A stretch of DNA of 62,098 nt, the filler included, from Stramenopiles sp. TOSAG23-6 (lineage: Eukaryota): the NCBI GenBank assembly GCA_900128565.1. It is 22 parts of 22 records of this genome, joined end to end, with 100 filler letters (N's around TTAATTAATTAA, not from the genome) between each part and the next. Parts side by side here need not be neighbours in the genome. Positions count along the whole stretch, not along the records: positions 2,849 to 5,596 come from LT637844.1; positions 5,697 to 8,441 come from LT637845.1; positions 8,542 to 11,285 come from LT637846.1; positions 11,386 to 14,129 come from LT637847.1; positions 14,230 to 16,962 come from LT637848.1; positions 17,063 to 19,793 come from LT637849.1; positions 19,894 to 22,624 come from LT637850.1; positions 22,725 to 25,454 come from LT637851.1; 14 more parts are not named here. One strand, given 5' to 3'. The notes under the pieces were generated by a model. The model saw only the letters and a list, made by a program, of their open reading frames with translations, ran no database searches and had not been told where the DNA came from. A program made the position numbers and the translations under genes. Of this stretch, positions 2,849 to 59,290 are shown piece after piece (position 1 is the first letter of the stretch; every line of letters begins with the position of its first letter).

Positions 2849-5596
2849 GAAGACTCCGACGTTTTGGTGGATTTGGTACGATTTTCAATAATCTTCTTAA
2901 CAAATGTAGTTGCCCTTCTAGTTGACGGGATGTTTTTTTATTTTTCGCAATGTACGAGCATAGAAAACCATGGACGGCTGACATTATAGAAAGAAAACCC
3001 GTATATTCTTTACTTTCCTTGTCTCCTTTTTGTAGTTCTATCGTGTTATTCTGTTGATTCATTGCACTGAATTTTGAATTTTCATATTTCTCAATAATCT
3101 TTCGCAGAACAGGTAATTCATAGATATTAAGAATAATCAAATACACTCTTTCATCATATAAAAAGGTTTGAACAGCATTCATACTTTTCAACAGCATCCT
3201 TTGTAGCATCGAGCAGACGAATTATGTTTCCAATATTTGTGGAGGATTTTGCAAGTTTAGCGTTGTTAGCGGAGTCAAGATTGGATACTTTCGATAAGTG
3301 CTCCATAAACCCTATCTTTATCGAGTGGCGTAGCATGATTAAATCAACGCTCATTTGAACAATTACTATATCTTGATGCAAACACATATCGAATAGAAAA
3401 TCATCTACATTGGTATTATCTGTTGTCATTACTTCAAAATCAACTAAAAAACTTTCAATGGTAGATTTGAAGCGCTTAATCAAACCAAATTCGGTATACA
3501 ATTCTGGATTATTTCTACGATACTGCTCGCCAACAATGAACATGTGATACCCCGATGATTTATATAAGAAATCATTAAGATGCTTATCTTTTGAAATTCT
3601 AAAATAGCTGCGCAATAATTTTAAGCACTCTCGTTTGCATAATATATTTGGAATTGTGTCTAAACTGCGAATATTTCTCTTAGAAATAGTAGTAGATTTC
3701 CTTTCGACGGCCATTGGTCTTAGATTAATGAGAAAATCATCTCCGTGTTCTCTACCCTTCATTTGGAACTTTGATAAACCTTTTGTAGCAAGTGAAACAA
3801 TATACTTGAGTAAAATGATGCACCGACATATGCGTAGTGTATTTAATATTATTCGAGCTTGGTGAAGAGTGGATGCCACGTTCTTGTCTGATAGTAACAA
3901 TGTTTTTTTGGAAAAATATTTCAAAAAAAAATCTAAAAAACATTGTTAGGTACAAAATTTCGTACGAAAAAAAATCGAATTTTCAAAAAAATAAAACATA
4001 CATATCATACACCATGCGTCAAGAATAGATGCAAAGACGTCATTATAAGATTGTATGTCATTAAAGTATTCACTTGATCCTCTAATATGAATCTGAGCNN
4101 NNNNNNNNNNNNNNNNNNNNNNNNNNNNNNNNNNNNNNNNATGGAATTGGTCGTTTTTGATATTATTATACTTAAATGAAAACAAAACTCAATGAAAAGA
4201 AATGACAAATAATGTGAACTCCCCAAAATATCATCTTGAAATTGAATGGAATTTCTATTGTGAGAGTTAGCATTTGATGTTTGTTTAATCTCAAGTTCTT
4301 TGTCAGGAGGCACATGTACAGAACTTTCATCTAACCCATCGCATCTTTTGTTGTGGTTTTGAATGATATTACAAAATACGGGAATAATATCTGTGAAATC
4401 TTTTTTGGTGGTATAGTAGCCGAATTCTACCAAATATGTTACAGTACTTAAAACAGTAGCAGTAAAAAGATCTCCATCTTTCGAGGAACCGAATGAGTTA
4501 GATAGTTCTGCCTCAGGATCATTCAGCACATGTATATGCGNNNNNNNNNNNNNNNNNNNNNNNNNNNNNNNNNNNNNNNNNNNNNNNNNNNNNNNNNNNN
4601 NNNNNNNNNNNNNNNNNNNNNNNNNNNNNNNNNNNNNNNNNNNNNNNNNNNNNNNNNNNNNNNNNNNNNNNNNNNNNNNNNNNNNNNNNNNNNNNNNNNN
4701 NNNNNNNNNNNNNNNNNNNNNNNNNNNNNNNNNNNNNNTCTTTTCGCATTCCAACAATAAAAAGCAAATCAAAAGATACAAATGACTTTGCAATCTTTAT
4801 GCCATTGTAGTTACGGTTTTTGCATAAAGCGGTGAAGAGATCCATTTGCGCCACAAAGTACTTTGCAATATTTTGATGATACATTCTTTCTGCAAACGTA
4901 ACTTTTTCAAGTTCAAGTGTTTGAAAGGCTATTGAAAGACTTCTTTTTAATTTCCCATCTTTGGAGTTTGCAGTTATTGAAGAAGATTTCACATCTTTTA
5001 CTTTATGTTCACCATCTTGATCCCCTCTTCTAAGCAATGAAGTTAATAGTATATTTCTATCAGGTTTGTTAAATGTACTTTTCGAAGTCCATGATAATGC
5101 AACCCCAGTATCTGCTTCAGGTTGTAAAAGGGAAGCACCATGAATCGTCGTAGTGTTTGATACAATGTTTTCCATATTTAATCTCATTTTGAGTTTATCT
5201 ATATCCCCACGAATGGAATTATTTGCATTAATGTTAGGAGGTGCTAATCGGGCCTTCAAAAATAGATCTATATTTTCATCTTTTGCCAAAAGTTGACATA
5301 AAAGGTTTTGATTATCTTGCAGAATATCAGTCTTACCAGCGATAAAATTTTTATCTGAGTCACAGTGACACAAAGCAGTAACAACTTCCAAACATTTTGA
5401 GTGCATTCCTACATTTCGAATGTATATGATTATATATTGAATTATTTCATTGGCACAGTTTAGAACTAATTCTTTGTTACTCTCAAAAAGGTGTTGTAAA
5501 CATTCCGCTGCACCTATATCTAAAGATATTTGATTGATTGTAAACTTTAACCACTGTGAAAAATACATTTCACATAGACGATTAGATGAAAATGAC
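2849..5596 (-). CDS. IP3/ryanodine receptor-like Ca2+ channel, internal fragment (gaps, intron 3900-4001, frameshift near 3180)
   Basis: RIH-like motifs NQNLLCQLL, YFVAQMDLFTALCKNRNY, YLVEFGYY. Confidence 0.65.
3900..4001 (-). other. Family intron, GT..CAT
   Basis: Full consensus; removal joins DAWCMI to LLLSDKNVAS in frame. Confidence 0.85.
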
Positions 5597-5751
5597 NNNN
5601 NNNNNNNNNNNNNNNNNNNNNNNNNNNNNNNNNNNNNNNNTTAATTAATTAANNNNNNNNNNNNNNNNNNNNNNNNNNNNNNNNNNNNNNNNNNNNTACC
5701 TAACAAAAAAAATTTAGATTTTTTTTTTTGAAATATTTTTCCAAAATACAT

Positions 5752-6968
5752 TTATTAACTTTATTACCTGATAAAAATCATCTTGAACAAAAAGTAAAAT
5801 ATGAAACATTGGAAGATTTGGAATATGTATGTTTTATTTTTTTTTTTTACAAAAAAATCGATTTTTTTTTTCGTACGCAATTTTGTACCTAACGAATTTT
5901 TTTTTTTTTTTTTTGAAATATTTTTCCAAAATACATTCAGATATAGAAAAAATACATCCAGAATGTATAGAACTAAGATTAGTATTACCAAAACCGATTA
6001 AAGGTGATTGTATACAATGGAATACTACTACTACTACTACTACTACAGACAATAGCCAGAAAAATACAACGCATAATGATTCAACATCTCGCTCACGACG
6101 TGGTAGAGGACTTGTCATTCATGCAGCAATGACTGGGCAAATGAACATTTCAAAACTTTCATCAAAAAATGTGTCTGAAATAAAAGTAAAAAACACAAAA
6201 AACACAAAAAACACAAAAAACACAAAACAAAATTCAAAAGTATTCTCTACAGTACCTCATTTCAACCCAGAGACTGATCTTTGGGCGTATCATAATAGTT
6301 TTGATAGTTTACATGAATCTTTATCAACAAAACATACTATTCCTATCCAAAGTGGAACAAACCTGAAACATATAAAGAGTGCAAGGGAACATGTCACTCA
6401 AGCTTTTGCACCTCATAACAATACAATAGAAGAAATAGAAGAAGATAATAAAGACGTTAGAAAGCCGTCAACAATACATGATCAATCTGTTTATTTTATG
6501 TCACGAAATGGAAATGTACTTTTTCATCATTCATTTCAAATGTATTTATTTTTGGTACGAAATTTTGTACCTCTACTATAATTTTGTTTATGATTTTGTT
6601 TTGTACCTTTCTAATACATTGACATATTTACATTGTTTTTACAATACATGTGGATCCATATAAACGCCCTAAAGGAGTAAAAGAAGTATCAAATGTCACT
6701 TCATTAGTAATGTATGTTTTTGTTTTTTTTCAATTTCGAAACAAAATTTTCATACGAAATTTTGTACCTAACAAATTTTTTGAATTTTTTTTTGAAATAT
6801 TTTTCCAAAATACATTCCCTGTTTTGGAATTGATAATGAAATAAGTAACGAAAAAACGACTACAAATATTCAAAAAACAAAAGTTTTAGGTGTATTACAA
6901 CTTTTATTATGTCCTGGTCGAGAAAGTTTTAGCCCTGAACAGATTTGTGCAGCAAAAATGTATGTTTT

Positions 6969-6999
<31 letters not shown>

Positions 7000-7772
7000 T
7001 TTTTTTCGAAAAAAAATACCAAACAATTTTTTTGTACCTAACAAATTGTACAAAAACAAAATATTCTTCATAGTATATGTGTGCACATTTATTATCTTTT
7101 GCACTCACTGCAAGAAATATAGCAATGAATTTATATAAACATCATGATGGGGATACAACAATGTTTTGCACTGATTTATCCAAGACAACAAGTGTGATGT
7201 TGGAAGCACATGACAAAATTACAAAATTATCAAATGAATATCGCATTCTTCAACAACAACGTGAATTAGATTTGGTACAGTATCAGAAAAATATACAAAA
7301 TATAACAAATAGACATCAACATGACAAAGTACACGTATCTGTTGAATCAAGTAAATTAAGAAGTTTATGTACTCGATGTATCTCAGACAATCATTTTATG
7401 TACGTTTTTTCTATATTTTTGTTTTTCTATATTTTTGTTTTTCTACATGTATTGAAAATTTGGTTTTGTTGTTTTTGGTATTAAACATTCAAAGCCTATA
7501 ATTTGGTTTTGTTGTTTTTGTTGTACTATGATTATATCCAATGATGTTTTTACTAATATATTTATATATGTATCATTATATTCACACAATACATGTCACA
7601 TACATTAAAACAAATCTTAGATAATTGTGATGACAAAAATCTGTTACATCTTTCAGAGGATCACATTGATGAAATACTTAGAATTGTGCATCGTGTTGAA
7701 GGATGGAAAGATCATGAAGATGAAGTTAAAAATATATGTGATTATTTAGAGACTTGGAAAAAAAAGAATTGA
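5752..7772 (+). CDS. GAF-domain/coiled-coil protein, 5'-partial; exons 5752-5826, 5937-6515, 6650-6711, 6816-6959, 7079-7399, 7595-7772
   Basis: All five GT..YAT excisions keep frame and build GAF-like VDP..TSLVIPCFG..VLGVLQLL..FSPEQ. Confidence 0.75.
5827..5936 (+). other. Family intron, GT..CAT
   Basis: Consensus; phase 0, EDLEY|SDIEK. Confidence 0.9.
6516..6649 (+). other. Diverged family intron, GT..CAT
   Basis: GTACTT..GGTACGAAATTTTGTACC..ACAATACAT; phase 0, RNGN|VDPY. Confidence 0.75.
6712..6815 (+). other. Family intron, GT..CAT
   Basis: Consensus; restores SLVIPCFG. Confidence 0.9.
6960..7078 (+). other. Family intron, GT..TAT
   Basis: In frame at TAT; using the AG ending at 7073 gives a frameshift and early TAG. 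Confidence 0.85.
7400..7594 (+). other. Long diverged family-like intron, GT..CAT
   Basis: GTACGT start, TACTAAT branch-like motif, CACAATACAT end; in frame. Confidence 0.75.
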
Positions 7773-8387: not shown

Positions 8388-8595
8388 ATGTATTTTGGAA
8401 AAATATTTCAAAAAAAATCTAAAAAAATTGTTAGGTACAAANNNNNNNNNNNNNNNNNNNNNNNNNNNNNNNNNNNNNNNNNNNNTTAATTAATTAANNN
8501 NNNNNNNNNNNNNNNNNNNNNNNNNNNNNNNNNNNNNNNNNTTTGTACCTAACAAATTTAAGTTTTTTTTTTTGAAATATTTTTCCAAAATACAT

Positions 8596-9160
8596 TAAGC
8601 TTCCAGAATACGATCTCGATCATACAACGAATAAAAACAATAATACAAAACAAAAGGATAAAAATGATGGGAAATATTTTGTTGTGAAAGAAAGTCAACA
8701 TATTAGAATTAGGAGTCTTTTAATCTTAAGAGATAAAACACGAAAAACACATCGAAGTAATCAAAATGTTCATTTGGCTACTGAAAATAAATACAAATGT
8801 TCAAGTTCTAGAAGTAGCTGCCATCAAGAGTTTTCTAGGGTAAGACGAAGAAATGAAGGCAATACAAATAATATAAGCCAGAAAAAATCAAATGCTAATA
8901 AGAATGATTCAAATCCAAACGAGAATAATAATGGATATGTAACTGCAAATGTACTATTTGAGTCATGTATCTTTTATTTTTTTCAATTTCGAATTTATTT
9001 TTTTTTCGTAGGAAATTCCGTACCTAACAAATTTTACAAAACATTTTTTTTTCACAATACATGTATGTTAATTATGGTATTTATTATTGTTGTAATTTTT
9101 GCTATAATTCTTGTTATTCTTGGAGATTATACTACTTCATTCATTTCTTTTGGTTCTTAG
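8596..9160 (+). CDS. Unknown protein C-terminus with terminal TM helix (intron 8967-9062)
   Basis: Open frame after partial intron ending 8595; hydrophobic C-terminal segment; TAG stop. Confidence 0.6.
8967..9062 (+). other. Family intron, GT..CAT (96 nt, stop-free)
   Basis: GTATCT..TACCTAAC..CACAATACAT, CAT direct repeat at both junctions. Confidence 0.85.
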
Positions 9161-9386: not shown

Positions 9387-11230
9387 TTACTCGTGATTGA
9401 GTTGTTCCACAAGCTTATCATGCGCAAATCCAACGACAATTTTCTTTAACGCTAAAGATTTTGGTAAATCGCTTTGAGTGCGCTGAATAGAGCGAATATC
9501 TTCCTCAAATTTGAGCAATGTATTTTCAAGAAATTCTTTATGTTGTTTCCATTCATCATCGCCTATATCTTGATTTCGCATCATTTTTTCCAGTAGACAT
9601 TTGAGCTGTTTTTCACCATCAGACGTTTCCAAGAGTGCTTGCAGTTGTCTATGAGACTCAAAATTATTGGATACATCAAGAACTAGAAAAAATATTTCAA
9701 AAAAAATCTAAAAAAAAATGTTAGGTACAAAATTTCGTACGAAAAATAAATAAATTCGAAATTAAAAAAAATAAAACATACACTTTTTGTACTAATTATT
9801 TCTCCATCGTTTAGATTAGCAGTAGACATTGGTAAAACTCCATCAACACATGAATGCCTATTCGTTCGTTCCAATGTAGACAATGAACGAATATTTGATC
9901 TAGAATCTGCATTATTGCGAAATTTTAATTTTGCACTATACACCGCATCAACATCTGCCAATGCCTGTATTTTCATGGAGCTATCACTTTGATTAGGGTT
10001 AGGGTTAGCATCAACATCTGCCAATGCCTGTATTTTCATAGAGCTATCACTTTGATCATTAGCGTTTAATTTTTTATTTTTTCTTGTTTTTGGTGGCTCA
10101 GATACAACAGTATTACAAATATATGCCCACAATTTGATTGCAGTTGCAGGAAAATATTCTTTGAGCAAAGCAGCTGATTTTGAAAAGATAGCCTTGTCCG
10201 AGGTAGATATTGCGAGGAAATTTACCTCATTAGCAAGATTAGTCTTTTGTGTATCACTGAGCGCTTTAAACATCGATTCATCTGAACGTTCAAATACAGC
10301 TTCCATTGCATCAAGAGCTACAGCACTAACATTGCCGTCAGTAGCTTGTAACAATAACAATAAAGTATCCACGGCGCCTAAACTCAAAAGTCGAGCGAGA
10401 TGTTCACGAGAGCAACCATTACAAGCATTGAGCAAAGCAATCGCTGCTTCTTTTTTCACTTCCCAATCATCTTCATGTGCAACACGTAATAGCTCTTTTG
10501 CGGCATCTGGTTCAGTATGATCTAACAGTGCAGCCACCTGTGCTGGTGTACCCGCAGCAACATTAGACAGAGCCCAACAAACATCTTTTCGAATTCGTTT
10601 TTTGGGATGGCGAAGTAGAGGTAAAAGTGCAGTAAGAACACCCGCATCAAGAACACTCTGTGTCTGTGTGTCAGTCCCTGAAACCAAAGAACCAATGGTA
10701 ACTAAAGCAGGAGTCACAACAGCTGTTGAGGGGTGACATAACAACTTTGCAAGTGGTGCAGCAGCACCGGACTGTAGCACAGCCTCAACCCGATTATTAT
10801 CTCCATCGGAAATGTATGAAAGAGCCCAGCAAGCGTCAGCCAAAACTTCTGGATCATTCATTCGAAGCAACACTGCCAACACGGGAAGAGTCGGTAAAAC
10901 ATCTGACAATGACGTTGATGGTTTTCCACGACAAAACGAAGACAATGCCCACGTAGCATTTTGAAGCATAGATAGTCCTGAAGGCCGACGAATGTTATAC
11001 AGTAATCCTTCCACAGAGCCATCTACACGTAACACTAGATCACGCAAGAGTGGACCATCACCAGCAATATTACCAAGACACCAACAACACTGCTCTCGTA
11101 CATCATCATCTGAAGAACGAAGTAATTGTACAAGCGCGGGTAAAGCTCCGGCATCGACAACTACTTGTGTATGTTCGCTTGATGCAATGTTAGTCAAAGC
11201 CCAAGCTGCTTCAAATTGTAATGTTGGATC
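9387..11230 (-). CDS. KPNA: Importin-alpha (ARM repeats) with a long atypical C-terminal extension, 5'-partial
   Basis: LQFEAAWALTNIAS, WCLGNIAGDG, NATWALSSFCRGKP, DACWALSYISDG. Confidence 0.9.
9675..9781 (-). other. Family intron, GT..GAT (alternative in-frame reading 9683-9783 GT..AG)
   Basis: Consensus 5' end and branch motif; both solutions keep frame. Confidence 0.65.
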
Positions 11231-11385
11231 ATGTATTTTGGAAAAATATTTCAAAAAAAATCGTTAGGTACAAAATTTCGTACGANNNNNNNNNNNNNNN
11301 NNNNNNNNNNNNNNNNNNNNNNNNNNNNNTTAATTAATTAANNNNNNNNNNNNNNNNNNNNNNNNNNNNNNNNNNNNNNNNNNNN

Positions 11386-12172: not shown

Positions 12173-14129
12173 TCACTCTCGTTTCACAAGAATATCAATT
12201 CGGAGTAAGCTATCTTCAAAATTTGAAGTAGTCGTTACATCGAATATAGAATTAAAACATCTAGACATGTATGGAAGGTATTCAAATGCAAAAAGTCTAC
12301 AGAATAATTCAAATTGAACTTTTGAACTTTCTTTGTATAATTTTTGTTTCGTTTGGGGAAGTGAGCTATATTCTATCAAAGTATTTACTTGAAATTGCAA
12401 CCACTTTTGAAAACATGAAGCCATAGAATCCCTAAGAAAGTATAAAGTACATAATCGCAGTTCATTAAATGAAGATAACATGTCATTGACAAGTTCTGCT
12501 AGAACACGAAATGTTAAAAATGACGTAGGAGCAGATATATCCACTGATACGATATCATTTTTCATATCAACTTGTTTCAAAATTTTAGCCCAAGAAAGTT
12601 TCGATATTCGTCCAAAAGAATAATTTGACAACATCTTTTGAAGAAGTATTGAAGACACATTTTGTTCAAACTTTTCACTGGCAGTCATCCAATGACTATT
12701 CATAAAATCCATAAATCGATTTTCAAACAAAGGGGACAAAATTCCTTGAAAATTCGCACCCGTTTGTGTCAAAGATGTATTTTGGAAAAATATTTCAAAA
12801 AAAATATTTTGAAAATTTGTTAGGTACAAAATTTACTATAAAAAAATAAATTCAAAATTGAAAAAAATAAAACGTACATGTTGCTAAATACATACTTTGT
12901 TCTATGACATTCGAAAATGCACTACCAGATGTAATTTTAGATAGATAATATTCCAACGTTTTCAAAAAAATATTTACCTGATTCGTCACCCAACGTCTTA
13001 GTTGAAAATCAACAAGTGAATCTGAGGTCTCATTATTAGAGTTAGGGTTTGAAATATTTACAAAAATGGCTTTGTATTGTGTAATAATTTCAAACCAATG
13101 CATTCGAAACTTTTCTATAATATCGAGTAAATATTTCGCAACAGCCTCTGAAGCTTTTGTACGACTCAGGTTGTCGACGTCAGGTACCAATACAGTTTGA
13201 ATAACTCCACGTAAATATTCCTCACGACAATTCAAAAATTCAAAGGATAATGATGACTTGACCATATTTTCTCTTTTTGAAGTAAATGTGTTTCGCGAAT
13301 TTTGCACATTGTTTTGTACTTGTCTATTTTTGTTTTCCTTATCTGTAGATATATTGCTATTTCCAATAATAGTAGAATCGTCAGTAGAATTATTCATTGT
13401 CGAACGGTAAAAATACAAATTAGTGAATTCTGAAAAATTGGATTGTGAAGAACTTTCGTTTTTTTCGTGTTTTTCGTTTTCCTCACGTAAAGGTTTCTTT
13501 TCTTGAGTTAAATTATATAAGGAAGTATTCTTATCGCATTGAGATAATTGATCTAAACGCTTTAAATATCCCACAATTTTGAAACACATGGGTAAATCAA
13601 TTTTGTTACACAAATGCCGTAGTAGTTGTTTTCTCATTAACTCTTTCGATGTATGCACTTCACCTACANNNNNNNNNNNNNNNNNNNNNNNNNNNNNNNN
13701 NNNNNNNNNNNNNNNNNNNNNNNNNNNNNNNNNNNNNATTGAATTGTCTTCATAGTTAGATTTCGATAACACAGGTGAAAGCATTTTATGACGTTTCTCA
13801 AGAATGTTGGCAAAAGAGACCAAATCTATTGCTTCTTTATATAAATTATTCCGAACACAAGTGTCCATAAGTTGAGGGACTTCAAGTAACTCAAGTAATT
13901 GAGTATGTTGCTGTAATGTCTTTTGGTTCTCCTCGTGGCTGCGAACTATTGAAACACCTAACTTTAGAAACGTATCTGCCTCGCTATTAATTTGAGGAAG
14001 TTCCGCTAAAATGTTGCCGAGCTTCTGAATACCAGACTGAGAAGCAACCTTTACGTCCTGCAAACAAGTATGATTTTCTATATAAAGTTTGTAATTTTTC
14101 AACAAGTCTAACAAATATACTTGAACCAA
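12173..14129 (-). CDS. COG8: Conserved oligomeric Golgi complex subunit 8 (Dor1), intron 12775-12877; true end may be the TAG near 12058 via a frameshift error
   Basis: LLELLEVPQLMDTCVRN; spliced junction gives QSMYLATSLTQTGANFQGIL, matching the COG8 QCMYFGLSFSRVGADFRG-type motif. Confidence 0.88.
12775..12877 (-). other. Family intron, GT..CAT
   Basis: 103-nt removal restores the COG8 motif without an indel; no AG after the branch motif; ACAT direct repeat. Confidence 0.93.
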
Positions 14130-14288
14130 NNNNNNNNNNNNNNNNNNNNNNNNNNNNNNNNNNNNNNNNNNNNTTAATTAATTAANNNNNNNNNNNNNNN
14201 NNNNNNNNNNNNNNNNNNNNNNNNNNNNNGTTAGGTACAAAATTTCGTACGAAAAATAAATTCGAAATTGAAAAAAAATAAAACGTAC

Positions 14289-16887: not shown

Positions 16888-17344
16888 GTATGTTTTATTT
16901 TTTTTTCAATTTTGAATTTATTTTTCGTACGAAATTTTGTACCTAACAAATTTTAGTTTTTTNNNNNNNNNNNNNNNNNNNNNNNNNNNNNNNNNNNNNN
17001 NNNNNNTTAATTAATTAANNNNNNNNNNNNNNNNNNNNNNNNNNNNNNNNNNNNNNNNNNNNTGCTTGGCTGTGGGGTTAGGTACAAAATTATCTACGAA
17101 AAAAAAAAAAAAAACGGACAATTTCGCCGACGCCCAAAAATGCCACTTTCGCCTAAATGGTACGGGCTTATAGGAGCGATAAAAAAAAAAAACAATTTGG
17201 CCTACGAGTTTCACGGATCGGCGACGATCGGACTATTATTCCCTTGATCGGACGACTACGATATATATACGATCATTTATTAGTTGAGTTTTTTTAGGAA
17301 AATCCTTGTTCAGGACGTTCTCATATCCCTCATATAACAAGAAC

Positions 17345-31114: not shown

Positions 31115-31253
31115 NNNNNNNNNNNNNNNNNNNNNNNNNNNNNNNNNNNNNNNNNNNNTTAATTAATTAANNNNNNNNNNNNNNNNNNNNNNNNNNNNNN
31201 NNNNNNNNNNNNNNACGAAAATAAATTCAAATTTGAAAAAAAATAAAACATAC

Positions 31254-44041: not shown

Positions 44042-44714
44042 ATGATGGAGCAGGTGGAGCAGTTGCTCAAAGAGATCCCTCCCATTACTCGAACGTACAT
44101 GATCGCGGCGTTTGCGACGACGACGGCGTGCTCATTGGAGCTCGTGTCTCCGTACCGCCTGTATTACAGCAGCACACTCATCTTTCAGAAGCTGGAGCTG
44201 TGGCGGCTAGCTACAAACTTTTGTTTCTTTGGCCAGAACTTCCCGTTGGACTTTCTGTTCCACATGTTCTTTCTCGTCCGCTATAGCCGCGCGCTCGAGG
44301 AGAACTCCTCTGTTTAGCCTTCAGTTCCTTGGGTCGTCTCTCACGTTCATGATGGTATATCTATGGGGCCGCCGAAACCCAGCAGCGCAGATGAATTTCC
44401 TCGGCATCTGGCCTTTTACGGGACCTTACCTGCCATGGTTACTCTTCTCATTTTCGCTGGTCCTAGGAGGTGTCTTCAAGGTCGACTTCCTTGGGATTAT
44501 TGTGGGTCATTTGTATTATTTTCTTGAAGACGTTTACCCACGTCTGATTCACTCGCGGTACCGGCTCTTGGAAACGCCTGCGCTAATAGAGAGGATGTTT
44601 GCATCGGACGATAGGGGTGATTTTTTGCTCGAGGATGAAGATGAGGATGAGAATGCGGCGGATGGCGAAGATGGACTAGATGCAGATGCTCCAGGGGGCT
44701 TTCGGGTTGAGTAG
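44042..44714 (+). CDS. DERL: Derlin (Der1-like), with internal deletion/frameshift near 44310
   Basis: IPPITRTY, ELWRL.TNF.FFG, RYSRALEE, LGSSLTFMMVY.WGRRNP, GHLYYFLEDVYP. Confidence 0.88.
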
Positions 44715-45322
44715 CACTTCACTTTAATCACTTCAGTTTAATCACTTCAGTTTAATCACTTCAGTTAATTCTAGAAAAAAAATGCGATGTTGTACATTGA
44801 CAATATTGTATTGACAAATTGTTGCGGAATCTTAGCTTGACACAGCTTATCGCAGCTACGAGCGCTTCGCAGCACAAGATGCCGATGTGTTGTGTTACTT
44901 GTGCTGTTCCTTGTGATGATGATCGTAGTGTTGCTCGTGGTGATGTTGTATCTTGTACTGTCATTGTCGTTTCTGCTACACTGCACATGATAAATGCACG
45001 TATGACATGCACCACGCGCATGACATTTACTATATGTATCACACACGACACAGACTCGTCGTAAGTTGAAACCGAATGTTGAAACCGAATGTAATGTAGT
45101 ACAGTATATTCAAAGGACATTAGCGTACTGCTTCCAAAATTCGACTGATTTTTCATACCGTTTTCTGTCAATGGGTTTCCCAGAACCACCTTCCCCCAGA
45201 GGCAGTGCGTTGCGCATTATTGNNNNNNNNNNNNNNNNNNNNNNNNNNNNNNNNNNNNNNNNNNNNTTAATTAATTAANNNNNNNNNNNNNNNNNNNNNN
45301 NNNNNNNNNNNNNNNNNNNNNN

Positions 45323-47877: not shown

Positions 47878-48231
47878 GTATGTTTTTTTTTTCAATTTCG
47901 AATTTATTTTTTTTCCGTAGTTTATTTTATACCAAACAAATTTTTGATTTTTGATTTTTTTTTTTTTTTTTTTTTAAATTTTTTTTTTAAATATTTCGTA
48001 CGAAATTTTTTACCTAAAAAAAAAAAATTCAAAATATTTTTNNNNNNNNNNNNNNNNNNNNNNNNNNNNNNNNNNNNNNNNNNNNTTAATTAATTAANNN
48101 NNNNNNNNNNNNNNNNNNNNNNNNNNNNNNNNNNNNNNNNNAAAAATTTTCAAAAAAAAAATCGGTAGGTAAAAAATTTCGTATGAAAAAAAAATTCGAT
48201 TTTTTTGTAAAAAAAAAAAAATAAAACATAC

Positions 48232-49961
48232 ATGCAGCTTCTCTTGAATTGTCTAGTAACTCTTTATTTTGTACTTCTGCTTTGTGTAAAGCATCTGCAG
48301 CTATTGATGCATCAATTTTACCCTGCATTGTAACATTTTCTAATAATTCATCGATTTCATTTTTTGACTCCGCTAAAGCCGCAGCAGCTGTTGATGTATT
48401 GTAAAAAGAAAAGTTTAGTTAAAAAAATCGTTAGGTACGAAACTTCGTATGAAAAAATAAATTAGAAATTCATATCAAACGTACATGCATCTTTGAAATT
48501 TTGATTGGCAACTTTTAATTCCTGTTCTAATTGTACGATTTGAGCAGCAGCGATTGTATCTTTCTGAAAATGAATTTGTCTTTCTTCTTCAATCTCCTTT
48601 TTAATAGAGTTTGCGTTATTTTCTACGGAACTCATCGCGTCTTTTAAATCATTTATAGTTTTGTTTATCAATTTCATTTCTTCTAGATGTTGCTCTTCTT
48701 TACTCTCATATTGAGATATACGTTTATTCTGATTTTTTTCCATTAATTTGGTCATTTCCATTTTGGAATGCATTTCATTTTCTGAAGATAATAATTTTGT
48801 CTTTGTTGTTTCAAGACATGGATTATGAAAAAATATTAAAAAAAAAATTTAAAAAAAATTGTTAGGTACAAAATTTCGTACGAAAAAAAAATTTAGATAA
48901 AAAATTGAAATGAAAACGTACATTTTTCTGAAGCAGAAAGTTTTGTTTGAAATTCTACAATTTCCATTTCAAATGTAGAGGCCATTTTTTTTTCACTTTC
49001 CATTTGATGTTGAATTATTTCTTCAGTCAATATTTTATTCTTTTTTTCAATATCTATGCGTTGTTGGATTATTTCTTCAGTCAATATTTTATTCTTCTCC
49101 TCAAGAGTTTGAATCATTTTCCCAGTGTCTACATTTTTTGAATTTTTTGAAGTAATAAAAGTTGAAATATTTTGTTGATTTTTCAGAATTTCAGTAAATG
49201 GTTTCCGGGTATCATGTTTACTTGGCGAAAGCCATACAGTTTCATGAATATTTCTATTTGTCAGTTCATCAGATAATCGAATAATTTGTTCTTTTTGTTG
49301 TTTACGTATTGTGAAAAAATATTTCAAAAACAAATTCGTTAGGTACGAAAATTTCGTATAAAAAAAAACTTAAATTAGAAATTCATATAAAACATACACA
49401 TAACACATGTAAATCTTCCGCGTTTTCACTAATGGTAGTCGGAGAATCGTCAGTCTGTTGGTTAATTTTGTCAGTGCTTGCTTCAGGGTTACTCAAACTT
49501 TGATTACTTAATTCTTTTATTTTTTCCCGAAGTTTTTGTTCAGTTACAAGAGCATCTTTTAGCATTGTACTTCTAAGTTTAAGTTTTACAATATTCGCAT
49601 TATTTTCATAAACTAATGACGTCGTTTTCTTCTTCCAAGATGATAGATCATTCTGCAGTGAGGCAATTTCAGAAACGTCGTATGGTTTATGTTCCTCGCA
49701 GGAAACCTCGCAGTTTTCACCTAGTGCAACTTTTAAGCGTTGCATTTCTAATTGCTTTTCAGCAAAAAAGGCTTGATATTTGCGCAATACCTCAACTTGT
49801 TGTAGCTGTAAATCTGCAGCCAACTCTTTATATGCCTGAGCCTCTGCACTTTTGTCTAGCTCTTCTTCATTAGTTGAATCGAGAAAGGCAAAACGGAAAT
49901 TACTTACTACATTTTGTATGCCACCAAGCTTGTCTAACCAAGTAGTAGATTTCAACGACAT
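48232..49961 (-). CDS. Long coiled-coil protein; exons 49961-49398, 49303-48922, 48817-48485, 48393-48232
   Basis: Three family introns join four ORFs in frame. Confidence 0.75.
48394..48484 (-). other. Family intron, GT..CAT
   Basis: Phase 1, KDA-S-TAAA. Confidence 0.88.
48818..48921 (-). other. Family intron, GT..CAT
   Basis: Phase 1, SEK-C-LETTK. Confidence 0.88.
49304..49397 (-). other. Family intron, GT..CGT variant
   Basis: Exon ends TGT, intron ends ATACGT; phase 0, in frame. Confidence 0.8.
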
Positions 49962-50854: not shown

Positions 50855-51049
50855 NNNNNNNNNNNNNNNNNNNNNNNNNNNNNNNNNNNNNNNNNNNNTT
50901 AATTAATTAANNNNNNNNNNNNNNNNNNNNNNNNNNNNNNNNNNNNNNNNNNNNTTTGGAAAAATATTTCAAAAAAAAAATCTAAAAAAAATTGTTAGGT
51001 ACAAAATTTCGTATGAAAAACAAATTTCGAAATTGAAATGAAAACGTAC

Positions 51050-53046
51050 ATATAATTGTAAATTTGATATTGAGCCACCCATCCAACATTCAATGAGATG
51101 AAATCCTAGACTACAAATTGAATGGGCGATGGCAGCATCCTTGGGTGTATTAGTAGTATCATTAGTATTATTAATATTATCAATAGTATTATTAGTATTA
51201 GTAGTATTAGTATTAGTATTATTAGTATTAGTATTATTAGTATTATTAGTATTATTAGTATTAGTAGTATTATTAGTATTATTAGTATTAGTATTAGTAT
51301 TATCAATAGTATTAGTAGTATTAGTAGTATTACTATCATTAGTATTACTATCAATAGTATTATTAGTATTATTACTATCAATAGTATTATTAGTATTACT
51401 ATCAATAGTATTAGTATTATCAATAGTATTATTACTATCATTAGTATTATCATCAAGTGTAAAAAAAGATGTAAACACTTCATTTTTAAATTTCATTGCA
51501 CATTTCTCTAATGATATGAATGCAGAATCTTCGCCTAACTCTGAAGCTCTACATCGAATAGTTTTCATCAATTTCTGGAATATTTGCCATCCATGCATGT
51601 ATTTTGGAACAATATTTCAAAAAAAATCTAAAAAAATTTGTTAGGTACAAAATTTCGTATGAAAAATAAATTCAAATTCGAAAAAATCGACCGTAAAAAA
51701 TATGGCATCGAAACCGCATCCAAGACAAACATAGCTATATTCAAGTCACAAAGTGTTGTAACTTTGTCATCATTATCTTTGCGTATCATATTAGGGTTAG
51801 GGTTATCAGATGTATTCATTTCTTGAGGAACTTCTTCGACGTTTTTAGGATTTTTGTTGTTTTCATCACTTATTTTTGCTAATTTTGTTTTGCCAGGATT
51901 AATTTTGTTGCTCGAGAAAAAAACTTTGCGTGGAATGTGTGTAACAACTGCAACAGCATCCCCACAGTAACACAACACAAAATCTGTTAAAGGTTCATCA
52001 GTATTAATGTATTGTGAAAAAAAAAAAATCCAAAAAAAAATCGTTAGGTACAAAATTTCGTACGAAACAAAAATCGAATTTCAAATTCAAATAAAAACGT
52101 ACATATTCACAGGACTTTTAAATATTGTTGCAGTTGATGCAGGTTGAAGAAAAGCATGTTTAGCCATTTCTGCAGTCAATAAATTATTACAAGTACCTTC
52201 ATGTGTTTCTCTATGGTAAAATTTTTTCTGTGGAATAAATATATTTTTTGTGTCAATGAGATCAGGTAACTTTTCAATTTCAGATTTAATTCCTACATGT
52301 ATTTTGGAAAAATATTTAAAAAAACAATTGTTAGGTACGAAATTTCGTACGAAAAAAAATCGAATTTGAAAAAAAAAACATACATCGTCCCAGGAGAAAG
52401 TTTGATGAACACGATAGCGTGGAACAGCTCCACGAGTAGAGCATACAATATGTAAGAATCCGTCGTCATCGATGTGAGCTTTGACTGAATTTCCTATTAT
52501 ATGTGTTGATATACGTTGAATAAGTACTCTTGGGTGTACGAAAATACCAACTATTTGTTCGATAAATCGGAGAGGAAAAAGTAACCACCATGCTGTATAT
52601 TGAGGGATACCACAAGCAGTAACTGATCCCACTGTGTCTTGTTTCAAGAGATCTGTGTACAATTTTTGCTCACTTATTATGAATACATAAGTTAGGAGTA
52701 AATATATCACGAACATGAAGAAAATGACAAATAATACTTTACGAACTAATCTTTTTCTAAGCCGACATAGAAAAATGAAAAACCCTGCACACAAACATAC
52801 ACCTATCATACATAAAAGGATGACAAGATAGAGAGTTTCAGTAAGCCCCGTTTTACCTTCTCAGTGACCATTCAATACGGATTGTAGTAAGCTCATTTGG
52901 AATATTTGATCGACTAGGAAGATGCATAAAACCAAAAATACAACATTCTTTACTTTCAAACGCTTTGGAAATACTGCGAAGGATTCTTTTTTTTGAGGAA
53001 TGACTTTTGCCAAAGCACAGATCACTGAATCAGACATAGTTTTCAT
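51050..53046 (-). CDS. Membrane-anchored protein, weakly DUF229/sulfatase-like; introns 52297-52383, 52007-52102, 51597-51703; in-frame TGA at 52861-52863; Asn/Thr-rich tract
   Basis: In-frame joins WDD|VGI, VN-I-NTD, VSM-P-HGW; IAMFVLDAVS motif. Confidence 0.5.
51597..51703 (-). other. Family intron, AT..CAT variant
   Basis: Starts ATATTT; this length keeps frame. Confidence 0.65.
52007..52102 (-). other. Family intron, GT..CAT
   Basis: Consensus, phase 2, in frame. Confidence 0.88.
52297..52383 (-). other. Family intron, GT..CAT (87 nt, stop-free)
   Basis: Consensus, phase 0. Confidence 0.88.
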
Positions 53047-53581: not shown

Positions 53582-53833
53582 ATGTATTGTGAAAAAATAT
53601 TTTACATTGTTTTTCGTTAGGTACAAAATTTCGTACGAAAAAAAAATCGAATTTGAAAAAAAATAAANNNNNNNNNNNNNNNNNNNNNNNNNNNNNNNNN
53701 NNNNNNNNNNNTTAATTAATTAANNNNNNNNNNNNNNNNNNNNNNNNNNNNNNNNNNNNNNNNNNNNTACGAAATTTTGTACCTAACAAATTTTTTCAAA
53801 TTTTTTTTTTTGAAATATTTTTTCATAATCCAT

Positions 53834-54947
53834 TAAGCGTATCCCAAAAGCGAGTAGAGGTCCAGTGGCTATGAGAAATAAAATGAATCACCGAAGTACA
53901 CTCACAGATATCGGTCTTGGTGGTGAAAGTCTTGCACGACATGCTTATCGACATTCTGCGGGTGCGTTCAAACCGCCACCACAGAGCAAAGTTGATGTAT
54001 GTTTTATTTTTTTTTAAATTTTTTTTTATAGGAAATTTTGTACCTAATTTTTTTTTTTTTTTTAAATTTTAAAAATTTTTTTTTTTATAGGAAGCAGGAA
54101 TAAAATTATCTGGCTCAAGTTTGATTATGTATGTTTTGTTTTTCATTCACCCTAACCCTAACCCTAACCCTAACCCTAACTCTTTTTTTTTTTTGGTTTT
54201 TTCGTACGAAATTTTGTACCTAACAAAAAAAATTCTGAAATTTTTTTATAGTATATGTATCCTACTGGCTATTGTGTTCCTGGAAAAAACTCATTCCGAA
54301 CGAAAGGAGTACATGTACGTGTTTATTATGAATTTTTTATCTAATTTTTTTTTCATACGAAATTTTGTACCTAACGATTTTTTTTTCCAACCAAAAAAAA
54401 AAAAATATTTTTTCACAGTATAGGAAGAACATATGGCAAAGTGTGGTGAAGATCACATAAAGTTTATAGAAACAGGTCTCGGTAGTGATATTGACGCTTT
54501 TGAAGGTCAATTTCGAGGGCGTAATCCGTATGTTTTTAATAGAAATTTTTATTAGAAATTTTTATTAGAAATTTTTTTTTGAAATTTTGAAAATTTTTTT
54601 TTTTCACAACTAACAAAAAAAAAAAAAAAAAAAAAAAAAAAGAAAATTTTTCAAAAAATACATGGATGCAATACAGTCACCTGCAGCAAAATGTTCATTA
54701 CCATTCCCTGATGTCTCAACACAAGCCAAATTACACGAAAATCCTTATGTTAGACAGAAAGGAAAATCTCGATCTCAATTAGCTGAAAAAATGTTAAAGT
54801 CTAAAATAAAATTTGGCGACAAAGGCGAAAATAATGAAGACTGCGAACGAAAATTATTTACTCATTGTAAAGGGGCTAGAGAAAAAGGAGCAGCGCATCA
54901 AAGTCAGATAACAAAGTGTTACATGTACGTTTTTAATTTTTTTAGGA

Positions 54948-54978
<31 letters not shown>

Positions 54979-56405
54979 ATTTTTTTTTTTTTTTTTTTTG
55001 GGGTGTTGAATTTTAAAAAAGTGAAAAAATTAAAAAAAAAATTTTGTACTTATAAAAAAAAAAGAAAGTTCAAAATATTTCCAAACATTACATGGGCGGT
55101 CATATTACTTCTAGAGAAGCTAAAGTTCTCGCAGCACAGAGAAATCGAAGTATTAATAATCATATTGTAGCTACAAAGGCAAATAGCGGTGATCAAATCA
55201 TTTTTGATGTATGTTTTATTTTTTTTTTTTTTTTACCAAAAAAAAAAAAAANNNNNNNNNNNNNNNNNNNNNNNNNNNNNNNNNNNNNNNNNNNNNNNNN
55301 NNNNNNNNNNNNNNNNNNNNNNNNNNNNNNNNNNNNNNNAAAAAATAAAAAAAAATATTTTTTCACAATACACGCAAAAGAAGAGAGTCCGATGAACATT
55401 GCCAAGAGTGGTTTACGTATAACAGGTAAACAAGCAAGAAGTCAAATATCAGAATCAATGTTTGGTGGTGAAGTTTTTCCCCATGAATATGTATGTTTTA
55501 TTTTTTTTTTACAAAAAAATCGAAATTTTTTTTTTTTGGTAAAAAAATTTTGTACCTAACAATTTTATTTCTTTTTTTTTTGAAATATTTTTCTACAATA
55601 TATAAAACATTTGCACACGAATTTGAAAATAAAATTACCAAGGGAATGAAACAAGCACCAGCAGATCATTATGCAATCAAACATAATGTTGTGTTTGGAG
55701 ATGATGGAGCACGTGAATCAGAAGGTTTTCGGTGGCGGAAAAAACATGTATGTTTTTTTTTTTTTTTTTTTTTTTTGGCTTAAAATTTTTGGCCAAAAAG
55801 TTTTTTTTTTTTTTTTTTTAATTTTTTTTTTTTTTTTTTTTTCAAAACATTTAGTATACCAAGGCTAATAATCAAAAAAAGACAAACTATTTTTCACAAT
55901 ACATGCTTCTCATGATAAATCTGTTGCTTTTGAGGATAAGTTACAAGAAAGAGGCTTAAAAACAGGAGCTGGTATGGGTTTAGTTGATCACATTCGATTC
56001 GGCACGGCATGTACGTTTCCATTTCATTTTTTTTTTTTTTTTTATTTTTTTTTTTTTCGAAATTTTNNNNNNNNNNNNNNNNNNNNNNNNNNNNNNNNNN
56101 NNNNNNNNNNNNNNNNNNNNNNNNAAAAAAAAAAAATATGTTTTCACAATACATGGGGTCTAAATGCGGAAGAGTTGAAAGATATTGCACAAAGAAGTGG
56201 AAAACGAAGATTTGTACAAGATAATTTGGGAAAAAAAGTGATTGCACAACCTGATGTAATTAGAGTTAAAGTGACAGTGCCACCTGGACCATTAGGTGTG
56301 ACCTTTGCTCCAGCTACTGATTTAGGCGATGGCGCAGTTATAAAAGAGTTTAGTCATGTGAATGATATTATGGGACCATTGCAATCACATCCAAGAATGA
56401 CAAGT
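53834..56405 (+). CDS. Intron-dense gene fragment (10 exons) ending in a PDZ-like domain
   Basis: Introns 53997-54090, 54129-54256, 54315-54423, 54528-54663, 54925-55093, 55209-55373, 55491-55603, 55748-55904, 56011-56154 give one open frame; VTVPPGPLGVTF. Confidence 0.75.
54149..54180. repeat. Interstitial telomeric repeat (CCCTAA)5 inside a family intron
   Basis: Direct inspection. Confidence 0.9.
54315..54423 (+). other. Family intron, GT..TAG at the consensus position
   Basis: TTTCACAGTATAG aligns with TTTCACAATACAT; first CAG (54418) gives a stop. Confidence 0.85.
54528..54663 (+). other. Family intron, GT..CAT, register-fixing copy
   Basis: Exon ends CC, so no AT-AC reading is possible; in frame RN-P-DAIQ. 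Confidence 0.8.
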
Positions 56406-56580
56406 GTATGTTTTATTTTATTTTTTTTTTTTTAACCGAAAAAAAAAAAAAAATCGAATTTATTTTTTTCAAAAAATTTTNNNNNNNNNNNNNNNNNNNN
56501 NNNNNNNNNNNNNNNNNNNNNNNNTTAATTAATTAANNNNNNNNNNNNNNNNNNNNNNNNNNNNNNNNNNNNNNNNNNNN

Positions 56581-57861: not shown

Positions 57862-58142
57862 TAGTGATGTAATTGATCTATTTAATTTGATATAATTTGA
57901 AATCGAAATATAACTTTTTCAGACTACTATTTTCTTTGTATTAGGGTTAGGGTTTTGAAAATTTAAAACTCTCAAATTTTCAAATTTTTTTATTTTCTGT
58001 TGTAAAATTTGAATAAATCAAAATCTTCTCTTTCAAAGAAAAAACTTCTGAAAAAAAACATTTTTTTTCTGATTGCACTGTAGTTCAACATTGATAATCT
58101 AGCCTGCAAATTATATAGCTCTATTCATCTGTTTTCTTTGTA

Positions 58143-58994
58143 ATGGATCAAAGACCATGTAATCAGTTGAACCATATGGAAAATTTTGATGACAACACCG
58201 GAATTACCACACCTAGATGTACTAGAGCTTTTAGCACTAGTGAAGAAGCGAGTTGGATTGGTTTTAGGAGTGATACAGGAGAGAGCTGTGATTCTAAGGC
58301 AACTTCAATTGAGCCAACTAAAACTTGTGAATCATTTGGCTGTAAGCAGAAATTTTCAATTGACACTGGTGAGACGATTCGAACTCAGAAAAACGATAGA
58401 TCTTGTTTGGGTAACTTTACAACACAGCGTCAACTTTTTCCCCAAAACAACAGCCTTGATATAAAAGACACGATATCACATACCTTGATCAAGCATGATA
58501 TTCAAGAAGCAAAATATATTACTAAAGAACGTCCTAAAGCTTCCGAAGTCAATGTACCACATTTTCAATTTTACCTCGACATGAATAGCTTACCTCCAAA
58601 TCCTCTAGAAAATGTTAATTTTCAAAATATTCCAAGTCAAATCAAATGTGATGCATCAGACTGTATCGTAGATACAATGGAAATTTCTTCAAGTGATGTA
58701 AACAGCTTTTGTTCACAAGATCGAAATAAGTTCGATTGGACTCAGAAACATCTTGAAAAAAAAAAATTAAAAACAAAAAAGTCGAAAAATAAGCAGAGAA
58801 CAAAAAAGTCGAAAACGAATCAGAGAATGTCTAATAAATGTAGAAAGAGAGCAAATAATAGTATCAACCATAATTCTAAAACGGGGGAAACGCCCATAAA
58901 TGTAGCAAGAGAACGATCTGTGGCATTCGTAGTTGCACAAAAAGCTCTTTTTGATATCATGCAACAAAATATGAAATCTAATTGTGTGCGTTAA
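58143..58994 (+). CDS. Hypothetical protein with basic patch
   Basis: 283-codon ATG-TAA ORF, no recognisable domain. Confidence 0.55.
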   Translation: MDQRPCNQLNHMENFDDNTGITTPRCTRAFSTSEEASWIGFRSDTGESCDSKATSIEPTKTCESFGCKQKFSIDTGETIRTQKNDRSCLGNFTTQRQLFPQNNSLDIKDTISHTLIKHDIQEAKYITKERPKASEVNVPHFQFYLDMNSLPPNPLENVNFQNIPSQIKCDASDCIVDTMEISSSDVNSFCSQDRNKFDWTQKHLEKKKLKTKKSKNKQRTKKSKTNQRMSNKCRKRANNSINHNSKTGETPINVARERSVAFVVAQKALFDIMQQNMKSNCVR

Positions 58995-59080
58995 AAAATA
59001 AAAATAAGAATAATATAAAAACTTCGTGTAATAACATTTTATAATAAATGTGCACGAAATGTTCATAGTCATACACTGAT

Positions 59081-59290
59081 TCAAGCTGCTGCAAGAGCAT
59101 TTTGTAAGGAGCAATCATGTTGAGTAAAACCAGCAAAACAAGAACAAAGTCCAGTAGTATTATCACAAATTCCACGATTACTGCAAACGACATGTATTGT
59201 GAAAAAATATTAAAAAAAAAATCGTTAGGTACATAATTTCGTACGAAAAAAAAATCGAAATTGAAAAAAAAAATAAAACATACATTCTTT
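59081..59290 (-). CDS. C-terminus of an EGF-like protein resembling stramenopile mastigoneme proteins (Ocm/Sig family); last exon 59191-59081
   Basis: VVCSNRGICDNTTGLCSCFAGFTQHDCSLQNALAAA*. Confidence 0.65.
59192..59283 (-). other. Family intron, GT..CAT
   Basis: Full consensus, AT direct repeat. Confidence 0.88.

Follow-up and report, generated by a model that had tools for sequence, protein, structure and literature searches.

According to the introner model, a mobile element gives one splice site of an intron and its duplicated target gives the other (PMC11282704). Here a family of short repeated introns, most of which run from GT to AT, was analysed in a stretch of 62,098 nt (the window, linkers included) from Stramenopiles sp. 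TOSAG23-6 (GenBank assembly GCA_900128565.1), and it is compared with the described systems. The introners of Micromonas pusilla and Aureococcus anophagefferens, which resemble miniature inverted-repeat transposable elements (MITEs), are likewise found as many short similar copies in unrelated genes, co-oriented with their hosts and flanked by short direct repeats; one splice site is carried by the element, the other lies at the duplicated target, and the mRNA is restored (PMC11282704; PMC7789003). Those introners have GT/GC-AG ends, clear terminal inverted repeats and a duplication of at least 3 nt. In the window 34 of 40 3' ends were AT, only 2 nt are repeated at the flanks, inverted repeats are limited to 4-6 nt, and the elements are putative DNA transposons.

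MITE-derived introns with non-AG 3' ends (AG-AC, AG-AT), whose 3' site lies beside a duplicated exon motif, are known from Fritillaria borealis (PMC11282704; PMC13326754). There the 5' end departs from the canonical form as well (AG), and changes of U1 and U2AF are invoked; in the present case, a protist and probably a stramenopile, the 5' site is an entirely standard GTAYGT and the departure is confined to the 3' dinucleotide. Amoebophrya (Syndiniales) resembles the window in its repeated introns, with direct repeats of 3-5 nt overlapping the borders, terminal inverted repeats and ambiguous borders. Amoebophrya is reported to have no dominant dinucleotide pair, inverted repeats of 8-20 nt and no recognisable U1, while here GT..AT dominates and the U2-type 5' and branch motifs are kept.

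For thousands of U12-type introns of Physarum polycephalum, an origin from a transposon-like element was proposed. Their flanking repeat of 2 bp is TA, GT-AT and AT-AT are their common non-canonical ends, and their extended 5' motif RTATCTTT is one base from GTATGTTT of the present family. The Physarum introns carry 5' motifs of U12 type, and their branch motif lies 9-12 nt from the end, in contrast to U12 motifs in 0 of 29 introns and a distance of 34-64 nt here. The same end pair is found in rare animal GT-AT introns, U2-type in DGCR2 and U12-type in seven human/mouse cases, whose splicing was either demonstrated or inferred (PMC1557818). These are isolated, conserved exceptions within hundreds of thousands of introns, unlike the main class of the window, all of one mobile family. 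The nonconventional introns of euglenids share variable non-canonical borders, short border repeats and pairable ends; they are reported to be without 5' and branch signals of the GT..AG type and have a defined stem (+4..+6 with -8..-6), whereas the family here has strong U2-type signals and an end pairing without covariation.

In the literature searched, no description was found of GT-AT as the main intron class of any organism, and, supplements being outside the scope, none of a GT..AT family or region with intact U2-type 5' and branch signals as main class. This agrees with the statement of a previous inspection of the window (the sequence-only reading) that no description of such a family was known to it. 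GT-AT ends by themselves are known as rarities, in mammals and in U12-type introns of Physarum. New here is a mobile family dominated by GT..AT; transposon-derived introns with non-canonical ends were already known.

The window is not one locus, and consists of 22 contigs, each about 2.7 kb long and arranged in order of size, with 21 linkers (N..TTAATTAATTAA..N) between them and a G+C content of about 33%. The runs containing the stretch were three small DNA runs of one organism, seawater metagenomes and metatranscriptomes. With at most one mismatch, the palindrome TTTCGTACGAAA was matched 28 times in the window against 0.31 expected, a number reached by 0 of 100 shuffles. A profile built from 12 full copies and searched in the window (E<=1e-3) gave 43 matches on 17 of the 22 contigs, with further diverged copies beyond these. 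A blind scan of all GTAYGT donors was too noisy, and only pointed to extra diverged copies. For the analysis of cuts, 29 introns of 87-171 nt with both ends were used, duplicated contig parts being left out, and one more was present at 59192-59283. The earlier count of about 35 complete and 20 partial copies differs from the present 43 profile matches plus diverged copies, with 29 both-ended, frame-testable introns and the one at 59192-59283; that a single element interrupts unrelated genes was borne out, the hosts including COG8/Dor1, RCC1, a galactosyltransferase, Methyltransf_28, an ankyrin-LRR protein and importin alpha.

The copies follow one layout, as noted before: GTAYGT, a T-tract, TTTCGTACGAAA, TTTTGTACCTAAC, then ..ATATTTTT(CCAA/TCAC)AATACAT. 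The consensus could be written as GTAYGTTTT, a T-rich part, (CAATTTCGAA), TTTCGTACGAAA, TTTTGTACCTAAC, another T-rich part, and GAAATATTTTT-CCAAAATACAT or -TCACAATACAT. Pairwise identity among the 12 full copies was 0.76 on average (range 0.58-0.92), so they are not near-identical as had been claimed, and the diverged members retain only GTAYGT, a CTAAC-like motif and an ..AYAYAT end. The sense orientation was maintained: the longest flanking open reading frame (ORF) of the contig lies on the element's strand in 40 of the 43 matches, the remaining three having short flanks, and no clear antisense copy was found among the 43 profile matches in the window. At gathering scores, Rfam gave no match on the window, and metagenome contigs scanned with a 25-nt core and with a gapped branch-to-3' pattern gave 0 loci each. 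A hairpin of the palindrome with TTTTGTAC beside the branch motif was considered, and was set aside with no clear covariation by eye.

The cut positions were examined by asking whether a cut connects the longest frames on its two sides, with shifted acceptors as controls; this best-frame test replaced a looser criterion (at least 12 codons on each side), which also passed wrong coordinates. Cutting before (G/A)TAYGT and after ..AYAYAN joined the best frames in 25 of the 29 introns (binomial P for at least 25, 6e-9), and acceptors shifted by +1, +2, -1 and -2 joined 0, 4, 4 and 0 of 29. Two of the four misses are short exons of a gene with ten exons, a third, 8967-9062, has two fairly long downstream frames, and the fourth, 20484-20654, is truly out of frame. 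By these cuts the 29 introns were GT..AT in 23 cases, AT..AT in 2, GT..AG in 2, GT..AC in 1 and GT..GT in 1. Among 40 distinct 3' ends, AT was found in 34, AG in 4, AC in 1 and GT in 1, and position -3 was C in 31 and T in 7.

Homologous proteins placed two of these cuts. In the COG8 (Dor1) gene, removal of 12775-12877 (-, GT..AT after AT, by Pfam, homologues and cut analysis) gave a joined protein that was ungapped (within 5 residues) across the junction ..EQSMYLAT-S-LTQTGANF.. in 84 of 85 homologues of at least 480 residues, which supports the earlier claim for this excision. In the RCC1 gene, excision of 31330-31422 (-) restored G-H-G-D, as had been said; the copy itself starts with AT and not GT, so that it is AT..AT after AT, or AT..AC if moved left by two bases. 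Joined, the ten exons at 53834-56405 form a frame of 470 codons that contains 0 stops, as the sequence-only reading had proposed; the two alternative frames contain 49 and 27. A GAF domain said to extend across several introns was not recovered: when exons of the ten-exon gene and the gene at 19 kb were compared singly with Pfam, no family and no GAF domain were found.

RNA and independent DNA contigs were compared for one contig, 53768-56480, on which the copies are called C1 to C11 in order (all on the + strand). Junctions were taken from the table of aligned pieces and from depth arithmetic, the table of joints being full of cross-matches between repeat copies. Poly(A) metatranscriptome contigs, at 92-99% similarity, join the exons and skip the introns at the predicted places, and in two samples they skip six or more consecutive introns at frame-preserving places; the introns skipped were C5-C10. 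The elements are real introns, as had been supposed. In X9, record 23 runs unbroken through 54664-54918, 55088-55203, 5 unplaced letters, 55374-55486 and 55600-55736; record 24 of X9 and record 12 of X6 join 56007 to 56152; and record 22 of X9 has 27 letters of an upstream exon ahead of 53832, joining that exon at C1 (53768-53833, the 3' part of a copy, end ATCCAT). Pieces of RNA begin at 54424 and 55901. At four junctions, ambiguous letters (6, 4, 3 and 4 nt: TTACAT, ATAT, CAT, ACAT) were assigned to the right piece, and with this allowed the joints equal the model.

These joints concern C6 (54925-55093, diverged, GT..AT after AT, 54918 joined to 55088 over the 6-nt repeat TTACAT), C8 (55491-55603, GT..AT after AT, end ATATAT, 55486 joined to 55600 over a 4-nt repeat), C9 (55748-55904, diverged, GT..AT after AT, with a piece from 55901 over a 4-nt repeat and 17 letters before it) and C10 (56011-56154, GT..AT after AT, seen in X6 and X9 over a 3-nt repeat). 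C7 (55209-55373, GT..AC, end ATACAC) was removed in RNA. For C5 (54528-54663, diverged, GT..AT after CC, RNA from X6 and X9), record 9 of X6 covers 54424-54527, then 54664 onward, and ends 27 letters past 54718, in agreement with its length. The record has a depth of 35.6, from which follow exactly the 12.5 for 54496-54586 (32 of 91 places) and the 5.48 for 54587-54677 (14 of 91), and in X9 the depth of 1.50 equals 9.77 x 14/91. Since the depth figures leave nothing on the intron, the X6 and X9 contigs skip 54528-54663 exactly. In X7, no complete exon-exon joint was present among the alignments listed.

In the DNA metagenome X4, records 3, 6 and 7 cross from intron into exon at 53833, 55373 and 55904 with no base difference listed there. 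X4 DNA carries the same ends, and therefore the AT and AC ends are not assembly errors. Side by side with these records, the repeat parts of 53768-56480 were aligned by 3383 X4 DNA contigs and by 588-719 RNA contigs (X6, X7), and their summed depth was in the thousands compared with about 3-35 on the exons, a depth that does not equal copy number. Loose contig ends at the repeat parts agree poorly (0.4-0.6), which suggests many different flanks.

That these results come from an artefact, namely assembly or amplification chimeras or a presence/absence polymorphism of DNA mistaken for splicing, was largely refuted: the assembly is poor (2.7-kb contigs broken in the repeat, one of them palindromic and one perfectly duplicated) and RNA libraries can contain DNA, but the independent X4 DNA has the same intron-exon borders, at least six consecutive introns are skipped in frame by RNA contigs from two samples, and both the frame test and the COG8 homologues fit the cuts.

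Another question is the register of the cut. Exonic AT precedes 24 of the 29 both-ended introns and 11 of 13 copies with only a 5' part, and a cut AT..AC would give the identical mRNA in 15 of the 23 GT..AT introns and in the RCC1 copy. As AT..AC gives the same mRNA in 16 of 29, it is only a minority of copies, the unambiguous ones, that bear out the GT-AT label, an ambiguity that had been missed when the introns were first named GT-AT. The bulk of the family might then be cut two bases to the left (ATGTAYGT...ATAC removed, with AT following), and GT..AT would remain in a few diverged copies only. The RCC1 copy with its mutated GT (ATATGT) would still be AT..AC in the shifted register, and U2-dependent AT-AC introns are on record (PMC1557818), AT-AC ends working in both spliceosomes. 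AT..AC is excluded in C5, which follows CC and is supported by RNA, in 19519-19608 after CT, in 9675-9781, and in 51597-51703, which follows CC and has AT..AT as sole register. Because C5, 19519-19608 and 51597-51703 exclude AT..AC, GT..AT is real, and to this extent the original naming stands, with AT at 34 of 40 ends.

Other observations favour GT..AT. The shifted register would give AT..AT in four more copies and AT..CC in one, and the last base C that it needs varies to T in 7 of 40 ends. At -3, 38 of 40 ends have a pyrimidine, in the manner of ordinary AG ends. C4 (54315-54423, GT..AG) has AG (GTATAG) at the exact place of the AT of others, which end in ATACAT, and RNA pieces start right after it, at 54424. 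The right-hand RNA piece at C7 begins at 55374 and not at 55372, though four other junctions gave their ambiguous letters to the right, which is weak evidence against an exonic AC, 5 letters being unseen there. All 29 positions agree with one rule, by which the cuts precede RTAYGT and follow YAN, and at most 16 agree with AT..AC; the unambiguous copies, the pyrimidine at -3, C4 and C7 all favour GT..AT, and for that reason this single rule was preferred. A predominant AT..AC cut was considered unlikely.

GTAYGT with G at +5 is the U2-type 5' consensus, and U2-type introns have a YTRAY branch motif tens of nt from the 3' end, with a pyrimidine tract after it. U12-type introns have a 5' RTATCCTT, a TCCTTAAC-like branch site about 10-20 nt from the 3' end and no pyrimidine tract. 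The AG at an intron end is recognised twice, by U2AF at an early stage of splicing and by the catalytic core in the second step. Among the 29 introns, GT was found at the 5' end of 27 (GTATGT in 17, GTACGT in 8), and YTAAY, a motif match only, lies 34-64 nt from the end in 25, with TACCTAAC in 21; the U2-type signals reported earlier were thus recovered, each in 25 of 29. A T-rich tract occurs at -12 to -16 of the 3' ends, and a CTAAC-like motif is kept in diverged copies, one of which has TACTAAC. The major (U2) spliceosome would do the cutting, with the branch at CTAAC; both assignments come from motifs.

The last two bases are AG in only 2 of the 29 introns and 4 of the 40 ends. Between branch motif and end, no AG was present in 16 of 25, so that the earlier statement that most copies lack a usable AG held for these and not for the other 9, which have one. 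In C5 and C9, an AG 21-23 nt upstream of the cut (21 nt in C5) is bypassed according to RNA. TAT inside GAAATAT is passed over, so the first YAT does not determine the cut, and a fixed distance does not determine it either, since the distance from branch to end varies; its position is probably given by the conserved motif ..TTTTYCAMAATAC.

Splicing by a transformed minor (U12-type) spliceosome, as in Physarum, would account for the observed ends, as GT..AT, AT..AT, GT..AC and GT..AG match the tolerance of U12 introns for AT-AN and GT-AT (PMC1557818). The 5' site GTATGTTTT is also one base off the Physarum RTATCTTT, and the conserved 3' motif at fixed distance to the cut, with A's at -6 to -9, leaves room for a transformed U12 branch. 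The specific motifs are absent all the same, as previously claimed: ATCC at +3..+6 was found in 0 of 29 and TCCTTAAC in 0 of 29. GTAYGT with its G at +5 is of U2 type, the CTAAC-like motifs, even in diverged copies and once as TACTAAC, lie far beyond the short U12 branch distance, and the T-rich tract is also against it. This explanation was held to be improbable.

Excision guided by structure and independent of splice-site sequence, as in euglenid nonconventional introns, would define the cuts by paired ends. The ends are complementary (exon AT plus GTAT against ATAC plus AT); of 21 copies folded, about half were predicted to pair them at minimum free energy, the summed pair probabilities being 2-7 for most, and the last two bases vary (AT, AC, GT, AG) at a fixed cut position. 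Against this, the end helix is only 4-6 bp (C5 has just GTAT/ATAC), GTACGT copies have no compensating change at the 3' end, the predicted folds of this AT-rich RNA are weak (-6 to -35 kcal/mol), and the strongly conserved GTAYGT and CTAAC would be without a role. As no compensating changes were seen, the end pairing was read as a relic of the element ends, and guidance by structure was regarded as very improbable.

The family was therefore best explained as true spliceosomal introns that derive from an introner-like mobile element of U2 type with an AT target-site-like repeat, in a probable stramenopile, an explanation which was considered likely. A mobile element of about 90-170 nt would carry its own strong U2-type 5' site (GTAYGT) and supply a T-rich tract, the 3' motif ..TTTTYCAMAATAC and, at 34-64 nt from the end, TACCTAAC or CTAAC as branch site. 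It would adjoin an exonic host AT, and the second AT after it would be a 2-bp target-site duplication. The cell would excise the element together with the downstream AT (GT...YAT), by which the host frame becomes exact, and the 3' cut would fall after YAT, sometimes YAC, YGT or YAG at the same position, instead of YAG, nearby AGs being passed over. The element itself would spread as DNA.

A flanking 2-nt repeat was found in 22 of 29 introns, AT/AT in 21 and GT/GT in one. The exonic AT is host sequence, lying in the His codon of GHGD in RCC1 and in Thr-Ser in COG8, so the element either targets AT or duplicates it. At 49304-49397 (-), GT stands on both sides instead of AT, which makes the copy GT..GT, or GT..AC two bases to the left; the repeat is altered on both sides together, as a 2-bp duplication predicts. 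The flanking AT may thus represent a target-site duplication, with plain AT preference as the alternative. Such an origin would agree with the introner model, the duplicated bases being AT in this case.

It is also possible, with a little less than even chances, that the 3' rule of the major spliceosome has changed from YAG to YAT, with the cut set by an internal motif or distance, in co-evolution with a mobile intron whose AT duplication forms the 3' site, and that GT-AT is the main class across the genome.

Several findings weigh against the explanation by an introner-like element and its GT..AT cut. The inverted ends are limited to GTAT/ATAC, or ATGTAT/ATACAT with the flank (4-6 nt), and the consensus ends diverge further in; no clear inverted repeats, transposase, empty sites or intergenic copies were seen in the window. 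The flanking repeat is missing in 7 of 29 copies, and 16 of 29 introns do not choose between GT..AT and AT..AC. The long copy 20484-20654 (-, after AT) and its duplicate 21822-21992 are out of frame under GT..AT, and removal of 170 or 173 nt, not 171, would be needed. A 5'-truncated copy in the RCC1 gene, 31447-31512 (-, found by profile), appears by sequence reasoning to have no in-frame GT..AT solution. The copies 31330-31422 and 51597-51703 begin with A, which fits AT-AC/U12-type rules better than a U2 5' site dependent on G1.

In the RNA, 92 letters lie between 53997 and 54424 in X6 record 9 and X9 record 22, where the model predicts 95; X7 record 20 aligns 4 nt into C5; 5 junction letters are unseen at C7; and X6 record 9 begins 27 nt within C1, which could be unspliced precursor or DNA. 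The RNA evidence consists of assembled contigs from a population of 92-99% similarity, mainly from one study (P3).

The other complete copies were distributed as follows. GT..AT introns after AT were found at 3900-4001 (-, in frame with 32/247 codons) and, by alignment and cut analysis, at 5827-5936 (+), 6712-6815 (+), 21233-21350 (-), 48394-48484 (-), 52007-52102 (-) and 52297-52383 (-); the copy at 59192-59283 (-), at a contig end and recognised by profile, is of the same kind. Variants after AT are GTATCT..AT at 8967-9062 (+, cut analysis), GTATAT..AT at 39369-39473 (+, cut analysis), a diverged copy at 6960-7078 (+) with the end AGTATAT, where an AG 5 nt upstream is bypassed by frame, and 48818-48921 (-) with the end ATCCAT, the copy whose shifted register is AT..CC. 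The intron of the importin-alpha gene at 9675-9781 (-) follows GT and is GT..AT by frame, with an in-frame AG at 9708 as alternative. The copy at 19519-19608 (-) is in frame with 61/74 codons, and the AG 5 nt upstream of its end is out of frame; the copy at 51597-51703 (-), with a 5' ATATTT, is in frame with 125/208 codons. On the ten-exon contig, C2 (53997-54090, diverged, GT..AG after AT) and C3 (54129-54256, GT..AT after AT) follow from the ten-exon model.

Some copies have additional internal features. In the copy at 19258-19387 (-, GT..AT after AT, by alignment and cut analysis), three tandem repeats of a unit of about 31 nt, GTATTCAAAATCGAATTTCGAATTTAC, start from the 5' splice site and give three donor-like sites of GTA type. 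C3 contains five telomere-like CCCTAA units (54150-54179) between 5' splice site and palindrome. At 9057-9075, the 3' end of the copy 8967-9062 abuts a second donor-like site, GTATGTTAAT, and the downstream frame is ambiguous (31 vs 47 codons). The exon ends around C5 are complementary (ATCC before, GGAT after; 54523-54670), so the spliced junction is a palindrome, ATCCGGAT, and in the predicted fold both exon ends are paired. The truncated RCC1 copy 31447-31512 comes directly after the codons VYSWG, and cuts which keep W-G-x-G-E-Y-G would be TA..AT, TT..AC, AT..CA or TA..AC.

Partial copies with a 3' part, assigned by profile and comparison of 3' ends, were present at the starts of contigs at 5697-5751 (+, end ATACAT), 8542-8595 (+), 22725-22779 (+) and 34038-34092 (+), and at contig ends at 8388-8441 (-), 11231-11285 (-, importin-alpha gene), 19741-19793 (-), 33873-33937 (-, end ATATAT) and 53582-53667 (-). 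Parts with the 5' end were assigned by profile and 5' motif at 14230-14288 (-, contig start), 15023-15085 (-, diverged, GTACGT after TT), 25390-25454 (+, contig end) and 48142-48231 (-, contig start), and so was a copy at 50955-51049 (-), cut at its 3' end by the contig start. Those at 16888-16962 (+, galactosyltransferase gene, GTATGT after AT) and 36860-36938 (-, Methyltransf_28 gene) were assigned by profile and Pfam. By 5' motif, further ones were placed at 31215-31253 (-, contig start, RCC1 gene, GTATGT after AT), 39529-39581 (+, contig end), 47878-48041 (+, a long variant reaching the contig end, GTATGT after AT) and C11 (56406-56480, GTATGT after GT, running off the contig). Many contigs begin or stop within an element copy, and the repeat is therefore what broke the assembly.

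The contig 19894-22624 repeats itself perfectly in direct orientation, the period being 1338 nt. Its three intron copies appear twice for this reason and are not to be counted twice: 19895-20012 (-) duplicates 21233-21350, a diverged copy with TACTAAC (20143-20283, -, GT..AT after AT) has its duplicate at 21481-21621, and the third is the long copy described above. The contig 1-2748 is palindromic around a gap at 1323-1355, with arms identical for at least 985 nt and the same TPR-like ORF of 286 codons on both strands (358-1218, +; 1460-2320, -), which suggests a chimera formed in amplification or assembly.

The contig 42503-45222 has 53% G+C, against 33% elsewhere, and zero element copies, and bears adaptin/coatomer-like and Derlin-like ORFs; it may come from another organism. 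A frame break in the Derlin-like ORF at about 44310 was considered as an unrelated intron and rejected, the break being too short. At 3154-3221 (-), two ORFs of one gene overlap in differing frames at a local repeat (GATGCTGTTGAAAAGTAT / GAATGCTGTTCAAACC); an intron was rejected here too, and the frame change looks like a small local duplication or a sequencing or assembly error.

The best named relatives of the importin-alpha exon at 9782-11230 (-) were stramenopiles, with 44-50% identity (a bicosoecid, eukprot record INCI, a pelagophyte, brown algae and diatoms), and unnamed environmental proteins reached up to 62%. The host is a probable stramenopile by this one protein, in line with the earlier assignment.

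Gene finders and spliced aligners bound to GT-AG will mis-annotate this organism and its relatives, and introner surveys which drop unfamiliar splice sites without RNA support (PMC12130899) would miss the family. The AG of the intron end is among the most constant signals of eukaryotic genes; here the 5' and branch sites are perfect and the ends are AT, sometimes AC or GT, with nearby AGs passed over, so the choice of the 3' end is separated from the other splicing signals. The organism must find its intron ends in an unusual way, which points to a needed change in U2AF35, Prp8, Slu7, Prp18 or the snRNAs. The introner model would be extended as well: the duplicated target, not the element, seems to supply the last two bases of the intron, and therefore the splicing machinery must tolerate whatever the transposon duplicates.

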